Below, piece by piece: positions 22,399-54,356 of a stretch of DNA of 55,135 bases (the stretch's first letter is position 1; the number at the start of each line of letters is the position of its first letter). The notes under the pieces are model-generated. The model made no database searches. It was not told where the DNA came from and saw nothing but the letters and a program-made list of their open reading frames with translations. The stretch is from contig CAYWJO010000020.1 of the NCBI GenBank assembly GCA_964458565.1, positions 1 through 55,135 of the forward strand, read 5' to 3'. Origin of the DNA: an uncultured archaeon (GTDB taxonomy: Archaea; Asgardarchaeota; Thorarchaeia; Thorarchaeales; Thorarchaeaceae). Position numbers and translations under genes: made by a program.

Positions 22399-25300
22399 AT
22401 GAAGATTCTACGATATATCATTGTACTGCTCATTGTAATAGGAGTCCTTGTAGTAGCATCAGGAATAATCTATGGCTGGTTACTAGGACAGACTATCTAT
22501 CAGAGTATGTATGAATCTAAAGCAGGAGTTAATTTCTGGAACACCTGGACTTTAGAATGGAATATTTTCACCGCTTCAGCTCTCCTTGCCATTTTAAGCT
22601 GGATTTCTCTTCCTCAACGTTCCACCTTTCTTACCTTCATCTCAGCTTTATCAGGCACTGGACCAACATTGAAGCGTCTAACTGTGAGTCAGTCAATCAT
22701 TTGGAAGGCTCTTGAGCTTGGTGGTTTCTTTGTGTTTTATATATCAACAGGTGGCTATTCCATCACCGGTCAGAATGTTGCGTTTCTATTAATGCTCATG
22801 GGACACGAATCAATTTCCATTACATCTGAACAGATGAGTACTTTATTCTCGTTACCTTTTTCACCTGGAACAAGTGCTGCAACTATAGAATCATTGATTC
22901 CTGCAATGGAGGCATACCAGCTTTATCTGGGACTTGTTGGTACACTTATCTTTGCGACAGGAGTTAGAATTGGGTTAACTCTTGTTACAGATTTTCTCTC
23001 TGAGAAAAAGGACATCTATATCATTGCAGCGAAGTCGCTCTCTCTTGGTGCTATTGCATCCATATTGGAGATTCTGAGTGTACCTATGTGGACTGTGAAT
23101 GCGGGAACTTGGATGACATATCTCACTTTGATTATTGTTCTTTTCTCATGTATCATCGGTGCTATTGGTTTCAGTATGTTGCGATTGCGTACGGGCGATG
23201 CCCGTTCTCGACTTCGAAGTAAAATACAAAGTCTTGAAGATGATTTAATTCGGTTGCAGGGTGAGCTCGCGTCGCTTAGACAGGAATATGAGAGCGGCGC
23301 TATGGATGCGGATGAATACCGCACAAGAGTATCCTTTCTTATGGAGGATCGTTCTCACATTTCAAATGAGTTGCGGAGATTAAAATTAGAAAGGATGCTT
23401 CCTGCATTTGGCTCATCTCGTTCTTTTGGGGTATTAGCAGTAATCCTCATTGTTCTATGTATCTCTCTTCCAATCATACAGGGTTTCTACTATGGTGTTC
23501 AAATGGAAGGCGACAAATATGTGGACTGGAAATTTGGTTATGAAACTGAAAAAGAGATTGCCATCACAAGCTGGGCTTCTGGAGTCTCAGATATAGAATC
23601 TCTTACCTTGGATGACCTTACATCGAATGCAACTCCTGAAGGTGAGGTGGAGTTTCTCAATACCGTACGTCAATGGGATAACACTGCTAGTTATTTACGG
23701 ATGCGGAATCAGATCGGAACGAATTGGATGCAGTTAGCAGACTCAGATATTGTATATTTACGAAATCATGAATATTGGATAGCCCCTCTTACCTTTGATC
23801 GAATCGCTACTAGTACAAATTTCATCAGCCAGCATCTAATATACACACACACCGAAGGTCTTGTTGTATTAGATGCGTTTAGTGGTGATGTTATCGAGCA
23901 CGAGAATCTTGTAGCTCTTTTGAATCGAAGTCAAGGTATACAAACCTACTATGGAGAAGGCAGTAGTTTCTATGATGCAGCATTTGTGAACGTTCCTGGA
24001 TTTCAAGAAGTTGGTAATCATTCATTTCAAGGCGAACCCGACTATCGCCTGCAAGGATTTGAATCACTCTTCTATTTCTTTGGATTGGGTCCGGATGCAT
24101 GGTCGTTTCTTGGACGTGATATGGATATTCTTTTGGAACGTGATGTCATCTCACGTGTTAGGTCAATCATGCTTCAGGGAATTACGGTTGATAGCGACCC
24201 CTATATTGTAGTGGATGCAAGTGGAGATCTTCATTATGCAGTTTCAGTCTATACCGATTATCGACTATCGACTGGATATGCAAAGGAGAACTACATGCGC
24301 TTTTTGGGCGTCATTTTAGTTGGCATCGAATCTGGAGAACTGAGTTTTTACAAATCCCCTACGATTGTTGAATCATTCTTTATTGAACAGACCTACATGA
24401 ACTACTATGACTGGCAGGAGGCTCCTTTGTGGTTGCAGCGTCAAATGAAATGGCCCGAGGACCTCTATGAGCGCCAACTTGATGTTGCCTATTTCACACA
24501 TGTAAAAGATGGTTTGGTTTGGCAAAGTGGACGTGACTTTCATGAAAGCCCAAGCAATTCCGATACAAGATATATCATCATGCGGATAGGGGGTGTTGAG
24601 AGATTCGTAGCTATGCACAATACTGAATTTCTTGCTTCACCTGGGCAAAATCTAGCTGGCATCTATGTAATGGGTTGCGGCGACAAAAACTTTGGAAAGT
24701 TACAGTTTTATAGTGCAGGATCAGAAGGATATTCCACTTATTTAGGACCTAATGCCGCTGTTCAAGCTTTTGAAACTGCAGATCAAGTGCGGACCCAGCT
24801 ACAATTGTGGGGTGCACATAGGTATGGTAATCGACTTCTATACCATCTAGGTGGAGACCTATTCTTTGTAATTCCAGTATTCTTAGAGGTGGAAACCTCA
24901 ACAGACATAGTCATTGAAAAGCTTGGAGGCGTGGGTTTAGTTGATGTTGAAACAGGAAAACGAGTTGAACTCGGAAGTAATGTTATTGAGGCATACTATC
25001 AGATGTTTGGCTTCTTGAATGAAACTACTGTTGATGCTGGTGAAGTGGGTTTCGAGAGTGCCCATTTTAATCCAGTGACAATCAACTCTGGGGACTTCTC
25101 ACAGCTAGTAACTCTGATTCGAAATAATGATGATATAAGCCACAACATAACATTGGAGATTAGCGTGTTCGCTGGAAACTTCAGTATTGATTGGCACGGT
25201 TTAGAAGTTGTACCCTATATCTATCCTACAAATAAAACCTTCACGATGAATATTGGTACTGTTGGACCAGGCGACCTCTATGGAACTTCTCCAAAGGTAA

Positions 25301-48776: not shown

Positions 48777-50492
48777 TCAAACTACAAAGTTGATGAATAT
48801 TGTAGCTCCATTCTTGAGTGAAGATACATACGCTCTTTCATAAGGACCAAACAGGTCCTGTAGGCCTGCATTTATCCCCCACTCAATCCAAGACCAACTA
48901 GACTCCTGTCCCATTTTATCTTCTACATATTGACCAAATGTCCAACTGAGATAACGTTCTAATTCTAATCGAGTAATTATTAGCTCATTATCTCTCTTTC
49001 CTTCAGGAGTATCTAGTTCACTCAGTATTTCCTTATGTTTTTCATTAATCTGCTTGTGTGTTTGGTTAAGGAAATTTTTGAATCCATACCACGCTTCGTT
49101 CATTTCATCAGGTCTGTTCTTTCTTTTCGCTTTGTTTGCTTTTCCCATATACTTGAACATCTCAGACTGGTGTAGTACGGGGATATTCTTCTTTGTCAAT
49201 GTTTCTGCAAGACGCTCATTATATGGTGTATTGAAATACACTCTTGGATATTTCACAAACATCGGAAATGGAATGGACAATGCCTCCGCTGTAGGAATCA
49301 CTTGTGCATAGTATGCAGTTTCACCTGCACCACCAACATGAACAAGCACCGGTAATACTCGGTTGAGGATAATTTGCCTTGAATCAACCCTTGGTGATAA
49401 AAACTCAGCATGATCTTCCAAATTCGGTTGGTCCGCTGATGTTTCTATCTCAATACTCTGACTACACGAAGGGCATTTGCCATGGAGAATCGTTTTGTTT
49501 CCTTCACGTTTATATGCAAGCTCGGTACGACTTCGATTACATCCCTTCTCCGGACATTCATAATAGAATGGAACATAATCCCTGCTTCTCTCCCCACTTC
49601 CAGGAATGAATCCATTTTCCTTAATCAATGAGGTGCTTTCTGCGTGTGTCTGAATGAATACTTCCCGATTCTCTGCAGATAAGAGAAACTCCATCCCCTC
49701 AATTAGTAACTTTCTAATCTCCTTGTTCGATGTTGGTATAAGTGGAATTCCAAGATCTCCTTCTACATTCATCAATCTCCCCATGATGCTTACAGCCCAC
49801 TCATCAAGCGTTGAAGAGTTATAAAACGCCCATCTAGTGATTGAAAGTGCATGTTCCATTCTCTCTTCATAGAGCTTTTTGGCTGTTCCATCTAGTATCT
49901 TAAGAAGTGGATTGTAATTGGATCTAATACTCTCTTCTACTTCTAGATACCAGTCATTACTAGGAAGCGGAATTTTACTAACCGGTGAATACGCATACCC
50001 CTCCGGAATTGGAATGCTTACTAGATTTCCTCCCTGCCCCATTATAGGTGTTCTAATATTCGTGAGTTCAGATTGCACAATGTCATAATCAGCGATAAAA
50101 TAGAAGGGCGTTATATTTTGACCTGCATCCTGCGCTAATCTGGCAATGATTGATGCTGTTGCTGCCTTATTCAGAATGTAACATGAACCTCCCATAGCGA
50201 CACTTTGATGTGCAGCCTCAATTCCACCAATACTGATTCTATCAATATTTTGACATACTTTTGGAGTGAGCGCTGAAATTTTGGAGTTCGCACTATGGAG
50301 TGCTTCTTTCAATCGACGCGCTTTTACTTCATCAAACCATTCGGTTTCATTATATTTTTCTAATAACGCTGGAATCCGTTCAACAACTTGCTGGAGACTT
50401 TTTGGGGGATCATTGTACAGTTTCCCTGCTAAAGAGGTATATTCGTTCTTCCAGATGTAATCCTCATATACCTTTGATATGCTCTGATCCAA
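48777..50492 (-). CDS. bshC: BshC-like cysteine-adding enzyme of bacillithiol biosynthesis, with a Cys4 insertion
   Basis: AHQ...MGG..Y...KA (cf. TGQQ...GGPLY...K), PFY.I.D.D (cf. P.FW..EDHD), LSP.V..R......LP...VGG.GE.AY.AQ, P....PR, C-terminal coiled coil. Directly downstream of bshA. Confidence 0.8.
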   Translation of the reverse strand: MDQSISKVYEDYIWKNEYTSLAGKLYNDPPKSLQQVVERIPALLEKYNETEWFDEVKARRLKEALHSANSKISALTPKVCQNIDRISIGGIEAAHQSVAMGGSCYILNKAATASIIARLAQDAGQNITPFYFIADYDIVQSELTNIRTPIMGQGGNLVSIPIPEGYAYSPVSKIPLPSNDWYLEVEESIRSNYNPLLKILDGTAKKLYEERMEHALSITRWAFYNSSTLDEWAVSIMGRLMNVEGDLGIPLIPTSNKEIRKLLIEGMEFLLSAENREVFIQTHAESTSLIKENGFIPGSGERSRDYVPFYYECPEKGCNRSRTELAYKREGNKTILHGKCPSCSQSIEIETSADQPNLEDHAEFLSPRVDSRQIILNRVLPVLVHVGGAGETAYYAQVIPTAEALSIPFPMFVKYPRVYFNTPYNERLAETLTKKNIPVLHQSEMFKYMGKANKAKRKNRPDEMNEAWYGFKNFLNQTHKQINEKHKEILSELDTPEGKRDNELIITRLELERYLSWTFGQYVEDKMGQESSWSWIEWGINAGLQDLFGPYERAYVSSLKNGATIFINFVV

Positions 50493-50504
50493 GATACTCC
50501 CCTC

Positions 50505-51674
50505 TTATTGTGTTTCGAGAGCTTCCTGAAACACCTTTTCATACATTGGAACGATTTTTTGTACTGAGAATGAATCCATTACTCTCTGCCTACCAGCTTT
50601 AGCTAGCTCTTTCCTACGTTTTTCGTCTTCTATCAGCTCTATGACTGCTTGCGCAAATTCAATTTCCTCATAGCCTTCTGTTACAATTCCATCTTTACCT
50701 GGTCTAACGAGCTCAGGTATTCCTCCTGCTGGGGTGGTTACTATTGGCAATCCACAAGACATCGATTCTAAAAGAACTAGTGGCATCCCTTCCAAAGTGG
50801 AATTCAATATGAACATGTCCGCAGAACACATTATATCCATCATATTGCTCTTGATGCCTAGAAGATGAACATTGTCACATAGATCAAGCGCTTCTATTTT
50901 TCGTTCAACATCAATTCGAGTAGGGCCATCTCCAGCAATCACCAATCTGGCATGCGGGTGATGGTCAACAACTATTCTCATAATTTCTATTAATTCTACA
51001 ATTCTCTTGACTTTTCTAAAGTTAGAGGCATGCAAGAGAACGATGTCATCTGAACCGATTTCTTTTGCTTCTTCTGCAGACCTTATTGCAACGCATCCGC
51101 TCTCAACAATGAGTTTGAAACCCTCCTTGGGTTTAAATTTCTCTACATCAATGAAATTTGGAATGACATGAATTTCTCTTTCTATTCCTAACTCATTATG
51201 AGCCTTCTTTTTCAGAAAATCCGAAACAACCGTCACTCCATTGGCTCTCTCAACAGTATGACGTACTACTGGTTCGTAGGCTGGATCAATACCCAAAGTG
51301 TGAACATCGGACCCGTGGAGTGTGATAACATATGGAAGATTGCATATCTCTCGGGCCATATATGCAGACATCGCATGAGGTATCGCATAGTGTGCATGCA
51401 ATAGATCAAGTTTAACATCTCTAGCAACTTTGACAATTTTAGATGTGAGTGCCATTGTGTATGGAGACCCAATATTCTTGAAAAGTGGGTAGTCAAATGA
51501 GTCAACAAGATCAACGTGCACTCCCTTAGTCTGTTCCCACATCAATGAGAAGGGTCTCTGATACGTGATGAAGTGTATTAGATGGCCTCTATTGGCCAAA
51601 TGCTGACCAAGACGTGTTGCCAGATAACCCGATCCACCAACGGATGAATAGAGATTTACACCAATCCTCACCAA
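50505..51674 (-). CDS. bshA: N-acetyl-alpha-D-glucosaminyl L-malate synthase BshA (GT4)
   Basis: GGSG..AT.LG..LA.RGH.IHFITY..PF, YPLF...PY..AL.SK, LDLLH.HYAIPHA..AY.AR, TLHG.D...G.D, H.SNFR.VKR, GDGP. These are BshA-specific rather than generic GT4 signatures. Confidence 0.88.
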   Translation of the reverse strand: MVRIGVNLYSSVGGSGYLATRLGQHLANRGHLIHFITYQRPFSLMWEQTKGVHVDLVDSFDYPLFKNIGSPYTMALTSKIVKVARDVKLDLLHAHYAIPHAMSAYMAREICNLPYVITLHGSDVHTLGIDPAYEPVVRHTVERANGVTVVSDFLKKKAHNELGIEREIHVIPNFIDVEKFKPKEGFKLIVESGCVAIRSAEEAKEIGSDDIVLLHASNFRKVKRIVELIEIMRIVVDHHPHARLVIAGDGPTRIDVERKIEALDLCDNVHLLGIKSNMMDIMCSADMFILNSTLEGMPLVLLESMSCGLPIVTTPAGGIPELVRPGKDGIVTEGYEEIEFAQAVIELIEDEKRRKELAKAGRQRVMDSFSVQKIVPMYEKVFQEALETQ

Positions 51675-51789
51675 AATACACCTTTTGGGTTGTAGCTCTC
51701 AGCTGTGACCTTTAAGGCAAATGGTTTAGGTAGTTTCTAAAGGTTTTCATCTGAAAAGGTTGATTAGCAAGTTAATTATCCTTAGGAGT

Positions 51790-52458
51790 ATGACCCACTC
51801 AGAGGAGCGTTCCCTTTTAGTAATCGTTGCCCACCCTGATGATGAATGTATAGGAGCTGGAGGTACAATAATCTCTCATGCTAGTACGGGTGTTTCAGTT
51901 GATGTTCTATGTCTTACAGGAAATAAAGAGAGAAACCTGGAACTGAATCATGCATGCAAAAAACTAGGTGTTCGTAACGTGTATTCCTCCATTCGCGACG
52001 ATTTTGCAATTGATATGTCTCTAACCTCTGATGTTTCGGATGTGATTATTGCTACACGTCCTGAAGTTGTGATTACTCACTCATACCATGATTATAATCG
52101 AAATCATAGCATGTGCGCAAGAATCGTTGATGAAGCAGTCGAGTGGGCTTCACATACAACGATGTTTGAAAGTGCTTACAAAGTGAGTCGAATCTACCAC
52201 ATGGAAATCAATTCTCTTCTCACTCGACCAAACATAATGGTTGATATTTCTGATCACTATGAGAAAGCATTGGAATCACTCCGCGAACACAAGTCCCAAG
52301 TTGGAAAAGCTGATGGATTCTATCTAAAATTCTATGATGCACGAACTCGACTTAGAGGTGTTCAGTCCGCTTGTTCACGAGCTGAGGCATTCAGTCTAAT
52401 ACCAACCAATCATGTTGGTCCGTTCTATCCAAAAAATAACGTGAAAACCCTGTTATGA
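51790..52458 (+). CDS. bshB: PIG-L/LmbE-family deacetylase, BshB-like (atypical NRNH for HxDH)
   Basis: VAHPDD...G.GGTI, RP..VITH, VDIS........AL..H.SQ, AEAF. Divergent from bshA. AGGAG SD before ATG 51790. Confidence 0.75.
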   Translation: MTHSEERSLLVIVAHPDDECIGAGGTIISHASTGVSVDVLCLTGNKERNLELNHACKKLGVRNVYSSIRDDFAIDMSLTSDVSDVIIATRPEVVITHSYHDYNRNHSMCARIVDEAVEWASHTTMFESAYKVSRIYHMEINSLLTRPNIMVDISDHYEKALESLREHKSQVGKADGFYLKFYDARTRLRGVQSACSRAEAFSLIPTNHVGPFYPKNNVKTLL

Positions 52459-52472
52459 AAAAAGTATCTTGA

Positions 52473-52874
52473 TTATTCTGAACCATCAGCTTTTCTTCTT
52501 CTTGCGGCAAGCAGTTGCTTCAGTTCACCCATCATACTTGTTGGTCCACTCGGTGCAGCCGCAGGTGCAGGTCCTCTGGTCGGAGCTTTTGCCATTGCAG
52601 GTGCGGCATCTGCAGCAGCACTTGGCGCAATGGTCGCTCCTGAAGTAACTCTGGAGGCTAGAGAACTCATCTGACTCTCCAACGAACCAACTGAAGACTT
52701 GATGCTACTGATCTCATTTTGAAGTGCATCTATTGCGCTTATTAGCTTTGAAGTAATGATTGTGACTACTTCACCCATCTCACGAAGTCGTTCTGCATTG
52801 GGATCTGCTAGTGCCCACTCAAACTCTTCCATAATGAATTCAGCATCAGCATCTTTGTTCTTTTCGTCAGACAT
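52473..52874 (-). CDS. Small coiled-coil protein with Ala/Pro linker and C-terminal Ena/VASP FAB-like motif; putative actin-binding protein
   Basis: Acidic N-terminus with Trp, ~50-aa heptad region, APAMAKAPTRGPAPAAAPSGP linker, then SMMGELKQLLAARRRKA. The ORF is solid; the function is inferred. Confidence 0.6.
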   Translation of the reverse strand: MSDEKNKDADAEFIMEEFEWALADPNAERLREMGEVVTIITSKLISAIDALQNEISSIKSSVGSLESQMSSLASRVTSGATIAPSAAADAAPAMAKAPTRGPAPAAAPSGPTSMMGELKQLLAARRRKADGSE

Positions 52875-52937
52875 TTCAGCGCATCTCTATTCGTTTGACG
52901 AATGGTTCGGCTATAAACCTTGTCTGGAAGTACTAGT

Positions 52938-54308
52938 TCATCCTATGGTTTTAACTACTACTGTTTTTGTTCTCTCAAGTATCTCAGTGACTCTTTTCTC
53001 TGTTTGGGCTTCACATGTTATTCTGATGAGAGGTTCAGTTCCTGATGGACGTACCAGTACCCACCCATCCTTTAGGGAGATGCCAATGCCATCGACTGTA
53101 AGGACATCGATCACATCGCCAATTGCCTCCGGTAGTATTTGTCCTAATTCGTTCATCACGTCAGCCTTTCTCTCGTTTGGGCATGGAATCTTACTCTTCT
53201 TGAGTGGGTATATTGGAATCTCTCCAATAATATTTCCGAATGTTCTTCCCGTTTTCGCCATGAGCTCAAGAAGTCTACATGCTGTCAAGAACGGCTCTGG
53301 TGCAAGGTGGAATTCAGGTAGTATGAAAACACCACAAGCTTCTCCACCAAAGACTGCGCCCATCTTTTTGACCTTAATTGCTACTTGGATGTCACCGACT
53401 GGAGTTCTTATCGGTTGCCCTCCAGATTTCTCTATAATCTCATCTAATACGCTGGAACTGTCCACTGTATGAATCACAATCTTTTTTCCAGTTCTTCTGA
53501 TTGCTTCACGTCCTAGTAAAGCAATTGTTCTGTCACCTCGGATTACTTCTCCTTTCTCAGTTACAAATACAACTCTATCAGCATCACCGTCATGGGCAAT
53601 TCCAAGATCCGCTCCAGTTTTGTGAATCATATGAATGAGGTCACCAAGTGATTCTTCCTCAGGCTCAGATTTTCGACCTGGAAAATGACCATCTAATTGA
53701 CTGTTTATTGTAATCACTTTACACCCAAGTTTTTGCATCAGATAGGGAGTTAGAACGCATGCTGCACCATTTCCTGGGTCGATTATAACTCTGAAATTCT
53801 TTGATTTAATCAGTTCTACATTTGTTTCTGCGAGTATTGCATCGATATGTTCCTCTGCAGCAGTTTCGAGTATATGTTGTTCACCTAGCTGGTCCCAATT
53901 TGCTGCCTTGAAGTTCTTTGTTTCATACAGTCTTTCCAGCTCGGCTTCTTCCTTATGAGTAAAACCCATGCTATCTCCTGCCCAGAACTTGATACCGGTG
54001 TAGTCTGGTGGATTGTGTGATGCAGTAATCATAACACCTGCGTCATATCCTCGATTCATAGTTGTGAATGCTAGTGTTGGAGTTGGAATGATGCCTGCTT
54101 TAGTGACGTTGACTCCTGTTGACATAACCCCCGCCGCGAAAGCATCCTCGACCATGATTCCTGTGGTTCTTGCGTCTCGGGCAATTAGAACAGTACCCTC
54201 AGATAGGTAAGTTCCCAAAGATTTTCCGAGATTCATTACCATCTCGATATCGAATTCCTTACCATAGACCTTCCTAACACCAGTGGTTCCGAATAGCTTA
54301 CCAGTCAT
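52938..54308 (-). CDS. glmM: Phosphoglucosamine mutase / phosphomannomutase (alpha-D-phosphohexomutase)
   Basis: LFGT.GVR, D.R, PTP, ITASHNP (phospho-Ser), DGDADR (metal loop), GGE..G, VRPSGTEP..RI..EA. Start ATG 54308 (ORF track 54317). Confidence 0.9.
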   Translation of the reverse strand: MTGKLFGTTGVRKVYGKEFDIEMVMNLGKSLGTYLSEGTVLIARDARTTGIMVEDAFAAGVMSTGVNVTKAGIIPTPTLAFTTMNRGYDAGVMITASHNPPDYTGIKFWAGDSMGFTHKEEAELERLYETKNFKAANWDQLGEQHILETAAEEHIDAILAETNVELIKSKNFRVIIDPGNGAACVLTPYLMQKLGCKVITINSQLDGHFPGRKSEPEEESLGDLIHMIHKTGADLGIAHDGDADRVVFVTEKGEVIRGDRTIALLGREAIRRTGKKIVIHTVDSSSVLDEIIEKSGGQPIRTPVGDIQVAIKVKKMGAVFGGEACGVFILPEFHLAPEPFLTACRLLELMAKTGRTFGNIIGEIPIYPLKKSKIPCPNERKADVMNELGQILPEAIGDVIDVLTVDGIGISLKDGWVLVRPSGTEPLIRITCEAQTEKRVTEILERTKTVVVKTIG

Positions 54309-54356
54309 TCGATTCACATCTCCTCACTGACCTGTTTATCTCAAAAAGCTAACTAC

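Follow-up and report, generated by a model that had tools for sequence, protein, structure and literature searches.

A conserved coiled-coil protein of Asgard archaea with a VASP FAB-like C-terminal helix, a candidate actin regulator

A small gene of an uncultured archaeon of the Thorarchaeaceae, located in a stretch of 55,135 nucleotides that was analysed as a whole and is called the window here, encodes a protein of 133 amino acids. The protein belongs to an Asgard family that is unnamed and undescribed in the literature and databases searched, and its design is known from eukaryotes. It is made of three parts, namely a coiled coil with a conserved head, a flexible arm of alanine, proline and glycine, and a C-terminal helix which resembles, at the level of a motif, the F-actin-binding motif (FAB) of VASP. 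Judged from these sequence features, the protein is a good candidate for a missing archaeal actin regulator. Actin filaments may be the partner of the tail, in which case the protein would be a VASP-like bundler, tether or elongation aid; this reading is held tentatively, at somewhat less than an even chance.

Gene, protein architecture and family

The gene and its parts are located in the window as follows.

52473-52874, minus strand: whole gene, 133 codons with ATG start, stop codon (52473-52475) included
52912-52917, minus strand: TTTATA box, candidate archaeal promoter of the gene's own, proposed from reading of the sequence
52809-52871, minus strand: acidic N-terminal helix 1, residues 2-22, including EEFEWAL (alignment and AlphaFold2)
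52743-52826, minus strand: invariant head block, residues 17-44, EFEWAL.DP....R..GEVV.IIT.KL (most invariant columns lie in head and tail)
52644-52796, minus strand: long heptad coiled-coil helix, residues 27-77, pLDDT 91-97, its sequence varying within the family
52539-52643, minus strand: disordered Ala/Pro/Gly linker, residues 78-112, with no PPPP run (AlphaFold2 and family alignment)
52485-52538, minus strand: terminal amphipathic basic helix, residues 113-130, VASP FAB-like (conservation, AlphaFold2 and profile scores)

The TTTATA box was read 37 nt upstream of the ATG, within the 63-nt gap behind the phosphohexomutase gene. EEFEWA corresponds to residues 16-21. Between about residues 37 and 76 hydrophobic residues recur cleanly in a 3-4 pattern, and the tail is SMMGELKQLLAARRRKA (residues 113-129). 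In the register read from the sequence, position a of the heptads is occupied by T41, I48, I55, V62, M69 and V76, and position d by V37, L44, L51, I58, L65 and L72. The three helices and the disordered segment between the second and the third were predicted by AlphaFold2 on the family alignment. The acidic EEFEWA N-terminus, heptad coil, Ala/Pro linker and basic tail given in the preliminary description of this 133-residue frame were all present as described. The head block is a candidate docking or packing surface.

Database searches recovered 171 proteins of similar length at E ≤ 0.01, and those that carry a label are almost all Thorarchaeota. When 400 genomes of the phylum were searched in full, the gene was present in 80 of the 85 genomes of the home taxonomic family, and weaker full-length matches were obtained in many other Asgard families. 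The 28 columns that are invariant among 30 aligned members form two blocks, the head and the tail; the coil and the linker are variable. This gene is not a chance reading frame, because it has so many database relatives, is carried by nearly all genomes of the home family and has its invariant residues clustered at both ends.

The divergent relatives are 112-190 residues long, and they include members in two closed Loki-type genomes (4.36 and 6.04 Mb). Every lineage examined showed the same order, with a head helix of the form M-x-[DE]-[DE]-F followed by a coiled coil, then by a Pro-rich arm and finally by a C-terminal helix, for example NPVSLRGAIMGELKELFAKRK or SLRGSIMDELKTLFSKRR. The Thor protein has each of the features by which members of the family are recognized, including the M-x-[DE]-[DE]-F head, the coil, the Pro-rich arm, an end helix of the form [ILM][MQ].ELK.L[FL]..[KR][KR] and a total length of 120-190 residues. 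Tandem copies were observed in Hel-type genomes or contigs, at L028:85-447(-) with L028:599-973(-) and at L100:6001-6378(+) with L100:6527-6892(+). One Hel-type contig with tandem copies is labelled as a bacterial MAG and was probably misbinned, because it carries an Arf/Ras GTPase.

Conservation of the tail and restriction to actin-bearing Asgard genomes had been proposed as checks in the preliminary description. MMGELK.LLAARR.K is kept without exception in Thor, where 15 tail residues are invariant; across the Asgard members the invariant residues are F18 and L118, with E117 and K119 conserved in at least 90%. All members that turned up in the searches made come from genomes and contigs of Asgard type. 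Non-Thor tails start R-G-A-I-M-G-E-L-K, in several lineages the end is a run of acidic residues such as TDDDDDD, and W20, the tryptophan of EEFEWA, was found in Thor only.

The tail is helical and amphipathic, has a basic cluster and forms the very C-terminus behind a flexible linker, and similar short motifs arise easily. These properties would suit a membrane tether, in which the basic end helix inserts into lipid like the helices of MinD and FtsA, and the stalk and head hold something there. Membrane-targeting helices usually keep their amphipathicity and not their exact letters. The hold on E117, L118 and K119 across the phylum, the 15 fixed residues in Thor, the acidic residue fixed inside the helix and the acidic runs at the end of several lineages all argue against insertion into lipid, which is considered improbable. 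A contact of the tail with a protein fits better than simple amphipathicity, because specific polar residues (E117, K119) are conserved besides the hydrophobic face.

Comparison with known actin-associated proteins

Against Pfam the protein gave only sub-threshold coiled-coil noise, e.g., FlaC, Lpp and Dynactin p22. The PDB was searched with the sequence alone and with the profile of the family, and the matches were generic and mostly trimeric coiled coils, including Lpp, phage gp26, reovirus sigma-1, HA2 and GCN4 adaptor fusions; neither the matches of the sequence nor the top 60 of the profile contained a BRICK1, WAVE or VASP chain. Foldseek against the PDB and a feature search of the ESM Atlas returned the protein's own unnamed clusters or nothing. 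Neither the tail profile nor a FAB 25-mer had a useful match in the PDB, and the results for the 25-mer held no VASP chain. No longer or fused form of the family was found at E ≤ 0.01, which is weak evidence.

The preliminary description had likened the coil to Brk1/HSPC300 and to the WAVE1 SHD helix, and the Brk1 fragments quoted there match PDB 3p8c_E residues 14-75 exactly. As a homologue of Brk1 or of the SHD helix, the protein would be a subunit of a proto-WAVE complex. Brk1 (PDB 3p8c chain E) is also a small coiled-coil protein made of a single long helix, the short string 'IIT.S' is common to Brk1 and the family, and hhalign of the family against Brk1 residues 20-72 yielded 46 aligned columns with 24% identity (pairwise E 0.0015). 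The same comparison, however, needed two gaps and had an hhalign probability of 16.5%, and BLASTP of the family protein against Brk1 gave no alignment at E ≤ 100. The 'SRVTSGAT' end of the coil, which resembles 'ARVTKGET' of Brk1 (pattern 'RVT.G.T'), is not conserved within the family, and the tryptophan through which EEFEWA was compared with the DWA of Brk1 is specific to Thor. The best PDB profile matches, being generic trimeric coils, and the Foldseek results also speak against this kinship, and Brk1, unlike the family, has no Pro-rich arm or terminal helix. The models for CYFIP, Nckap1 and ARPC4 (PF05994, PF09735 and PF05856) gave no match in the genome of this archaeon, which is 93% complete; these absences are weak evidence because control genomes cannot give positives for such eukaryotic families. 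Based on BLASTP, hhalign, the PDB profile and conservation within the family, kinship with Brk1 or WAVE is largely refuted at the sequence level, and homology is given a very small probability.

The comparison of the tail with VASP had a different outcome. The human VASP FAB is a 20-mer comprising residues 259-278 (PMC10340426), and its sequence as given in the preliminary description was checked in that source. It was scored on a profile of 19 columns of the family tails, with 2,067,521 windows from the six-frame open reading frames of the genome as background and 20,000 composition-preserving shuffles of the FAB as control. The FAB obtained 23.7 bits; among the background windows only the protein itself equals or beats this score, and none of the 20,000 shuffles reaches it. 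The match is specific to the FAB, because on the same profile the VASP GAB, which is WH2-like, reaches about 3 bits. In a plain ungapped BLOSUM62 comparison the Thor tail ranks 3rd to 5th among the approximately 2.1 million windows of its own genome, and a nitrilase-like reading frame carries the similar MMGELNQIFEKRR by chance.

The strength of the match differs between lineages. It is strongest on Thor tails (27.2 bits) and weaker on non-Thor tails (16.2 bits), for which 6 background windows are as good or better and 33 of the 20,000 shuffles reach the score. The match is at its strongest for the 'AARRRKA' ending, which is Thor-specific, so the letters most like those of VASP are not ancestral; the core shared by the lineages is [IL]M.E[LM]..[LM][LF] with a basic cluster, and the ARRRKA identity is a peculiarity of Thor. 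The resemblance is real at the motif level, goes beyond composition and is unlikely to be pure chance; homology is not established by it. The likeness to VASP is functional or convergent, and membership in that family is not claimed.

The EVH2 region of Ena/VASP contains a Pro-rich region, the GAB, the FAB (259-278) and a tetramerising coiled coil (PMC10340426). The archaeal family has in common with it a coiled coil, a flexible Pro-rich segment and an amphipathic helix that is preceded by glycine and has a basic end, true polyproline being present in the non-Thor members only. The order of the parts is reversed, with the coil N-terminal and the tail at the very C-terminus, and EVH1, GAB or a second WH2-like motif are lacking. 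HMMER detected no homology to Ena/VASP. There was no Pfam match to WH1/EVH1 at E ≤ 10, the N-terminus being a 22-residue helix, and none to VASP_tetra, the coil preceding the tail and following a regular 3-4 heptad pattern; as for the GAB, a single conserved helix follows the linker of the Thor protein. The coil of Ena/VASP is a right-handed tetramerisation coil, whereas that of the Thor protein is a regular left-handed heptad coil of about 50 residues, and the whole protein has 133 residues compared with about 380 in Ena/VASP.

WH2-like motifs of the LKKT type occur in two-domain gelsolins of Asgard archaea (PMC7444086, PMC9433394). Like WH2, the tail is a short amphipathic helix followed by basic residues, and the non-Thor tail start is close to the R..LL..I(R/K) start of WH2; unlike WH2, it has no L-[KR]-[KR]-[TV] after a helix break and is predicted to form one continuous helix. 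The Pfam WH2 model (PF02205) did not match any of 15 isolated tails at E ≤ 10, and when five genomes were searched at the same threshold it matched other reading frames weakly and never a member of the family. A WH2 identity of the tail, which the preliminary description had suggested checking, therefore found no support in this model.

The arm differs between lineages. The preliminary description had pointed out that the linker has no true polyproline run, and PPPP is absent from it, yet present in other Asgard relatives. None of the 139 Thor-type members has PPPP, the Thor arm being Ala/Pro only. The non-Thor arms contain on average 33% proline, with PPPP in 18 of 36 members and PPPPP in 11 of 36, and most non-Thor lineages have PPPP(P) or GPP-repeat tracts, e.g., GGPPGGPPGGPPPGP or PPPPPGR repeats; the orthologues of L. 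ossiferum type and of MK-D1 type are among those with true polyproline. These tracts resemble known profilin-binding sites. It was reported that Loki profilins do not bind to VASP polyproline (PMC8410842).

Genomic distribution, neighbours and the actin gene

The genome that carries the gene also has actin (419 bits) and gelsolin-domain genes; profilin was not detected in it with the Pfam model. Of the genomes sampled, actin was found in 30 of 31 in the home family and in every one in two other Asgard families (14/14 and 17/17). Two small genomes have a family member and no actin match; they are 82-84% complete, and all five of the sister genomes tested contain both actin and the family gene. 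A 1DGelX-type protein with a single gelsolin domain is encoded in the same genome by a 306-aa open frame (contig C30, ~24308-24469, plus strand). In its long Thr/Pro arm PPPTPPP occurs repeatedly, its C-terminus is rich in lysine, and neither a related X domain nor a related tail is present. An actin-binding protein with polyproline thus exists in this genome, though the linker of the 133-aa protein lacks it.

The actin gene of this genome has a feature of its own. The gene is located outside the window, on contig C1 (locus L001, 1555-2661, minus strand), and its frame is broken after ...KTFQN by 30 nt containing a TAA stop, after which the canonical C-terminus (MWVSRKEF...) resumes in frame.

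L001:1556-1585 (= G000:C1:109606-109635), minus strand: 30-nt insert, the removal of which restores FQKMW

An insert is present at the same position of actin in four other genera, and the other genera sampled have uninterrupted genes. The predicted fold of the RNA (z-score -5.1) comprises an exon-exon helix, a central helix of 4 bp with a bulge on either side and, innermost, a hairpin of 9 bp, and compensatory changes occur in this fold across the five genera. If each strand is cut 2 nt to the 3' side of the central helix, precisely L001:1556-1585 is excised and FQKMW results. Exactly these 30 nt are missing from a metatranscriptome contig of 812 nt that otherwise matches with 0 mismatches, and are retained in the DNA contig; the support comes from this one RNA contig of a single run. 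The insert looks like a bulge-helix-bulge intron, a candidate for endonuclease splicing of an archaeal actin mRNA; no report of such an intron in archaeal actin mRNA was found in the literature searched.

The neighbours of the family gene are of other kinds. In Thor the synteny consists of sugar and thiol metabolism genes: the block at 48777-54317 of the window contains genes for a BshC-like protein (571 aa), a GT4 glycosyltransferase (389 aa), a PIG-L deacetylase (232 aa), the family protein and a phosphohexomutase (459 aa), and this order is kept in two other Thor genera. The block resembles a bacillithiol-type thiol pathway in an archaeon. Further along, an alpha/beta-type reading frame and a Ras-family GTPase were observed. 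In the closed Loki-type genomes the family gene adjoins a gene for a 206-aa protein (L077:5667-6284(-), L078:4037-4654(+)) which combines an Elf1 zinc ribbon (PF05129, E 9e-17) at the N-terminus with a long extension. In three genomes from two Asgard families other than Thor, the immediate neighbour of the family gene, at L079:4483-5112(+), L083:4318-4950(+) and L080:4144-4761(-), encodes an unnamed helical protein which is rich in Lys and Glu, has 206-211 residues and starts with ..ITHEDE..; the three proteins match one another with E 1e-36 to 1e-93. No Pfam family covers this protein, BLAST gave no match to it in the Thor genome, and it may be a lineage-specific partner. No actin-related gene was a neighbour in any lineage examined.

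This gene order bears on an explanation that does without actin. The protein could be a 'fly-casting' adaptor with an oligomeric stalk and flexible arms, the tail of which recruits a universal Asgard machine such as an ATPase, a GTPase or a membrane-remodelling complex. Tails of the ribosomal P-stalk recruit translation GTPases in this manner, and ribosomal P1/aP1 offers an analogy of architecture only: it also has an N-terminal helical self-association domain, an Ala/Pro/Gly linker and a conserved C-terminal recruiting peptide, but a different N-terminal fold and tail sequence and no sequence relationship. The linker of the Thor protein weakly matches ribosomal protein P1 in the PDB search (E 0.22). 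The conservation of both ends around a variable middle, the lack of actin-related synteny, the presence in several lineages of an unrelated, conserved helical neighbour of no family, and the partly Thor-specific nature of the FAB-like letters all favour an adaptor of this kind. Against it, no search produced a candidate partner, polyproline combined with a FAB-like helix is otherwise typical of actin assembly factors, and the FAB score lies above all background windows. On balance such an adaptor is somewhat less likely than the actin reading.

In the literature searched, the actin regulators reported for Asgard archaea are gelsolins and profilins only, with WH2-like motifs only inside gelsolins; no Asgard elongation, bundling or nucleation-promoting factor and no protein like this family is described there. 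The only experimental data set found is a co-IP of Lokiactin in L. ossiferum (bioRxiv 10.1101/2025.11.30.690169; PRIDE PXD068820). An orthologue of the L. ossiferum type is encoded at G138:2,628,841-2,629,245; it has about 16.1 kDa, and its tryptic peptides include VEGLADVIEK and APPAQAPANPVSLR. The co-IP table uses private locus tags, and the tag range expected for the orthologue, GNAMCCOK_0222x-0225x, is a rough one interpolated between actin (03343) and 2DGel2 (02589); among the rows of the table with log2 ratios from 2.58 to 1.14, no protein of about 16 kDa falls in this range, which counts neither for nor against actin as the partner. According to a statement of its authors, such experiments under-represent membrane-associated proteins (bioRxiv 10.1101/2025.11.30.690169), a point that would count for the membrane tether considered above.

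Possible function and significance

In the preferred reading, the protein would be a small stand-alone scaffold which associates with itself through its coiled coil, each chain ending in a flexible arm tipped by the conserved docking helix. The heptads have beta-branched residues at position a and leucine at position d, a pattern that by the rules of GCN4 favours dimers, and the best sequence matches are trimers; two or three chains may be joined. The partner of the docking helix is most likely the archaeon's own actin, and the joined tails would bind along filaments or at their end, as the FAB of Ena/VASP does. Filament-bound tails could then bundle or tether filaments or help to elongate them, and the true-polyproline arms of the non-Thor lineages could also recruit profilin-actin. 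The invariant N-terminal head may place the assembly on some other structure. A multivalent tether fits the family, because a stalk of variable sequence and a flexible arm lie between the conserved head and the conserved tail.

Asgard cells in culture crawl and form protrusions filled with actin, and the Asgard actin regulators described in the literature searched leave a place vacant for an elongation or bundling factor. The family is near-universal in its home family and also occurs in several other Asgard families. It brings together three ingredients of eukaryotic filament-end factors, that is, presumed self-association, a Pro-rich arm and a FAB-like helix. A bolder proposal, which we regard as doubtful, is that the family represents an ancestral Asgard factor for actin assembly or bundling, from which the eukaryotic modules combining FAB or WH2 with polyproline (Ena/VASP, WASP/WAVE-type) descend or whose design they repeat. 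Such a pan-Asgard oligomer would recruit profilin-actin with its polyproline arm and bind filaments with its terminal helix, and, if this were true, a third class of actin regulators would have existed beside profilin and gelsolin before eukaryogenesis. The pre-eukaryotic origin of an actin assembly factor of this kind becomes testable, because the protein is short, soluble-looking and easy to express. If the partner is not actin, the family would still be a conserved, unnamed and Asgard-specific adaptor.
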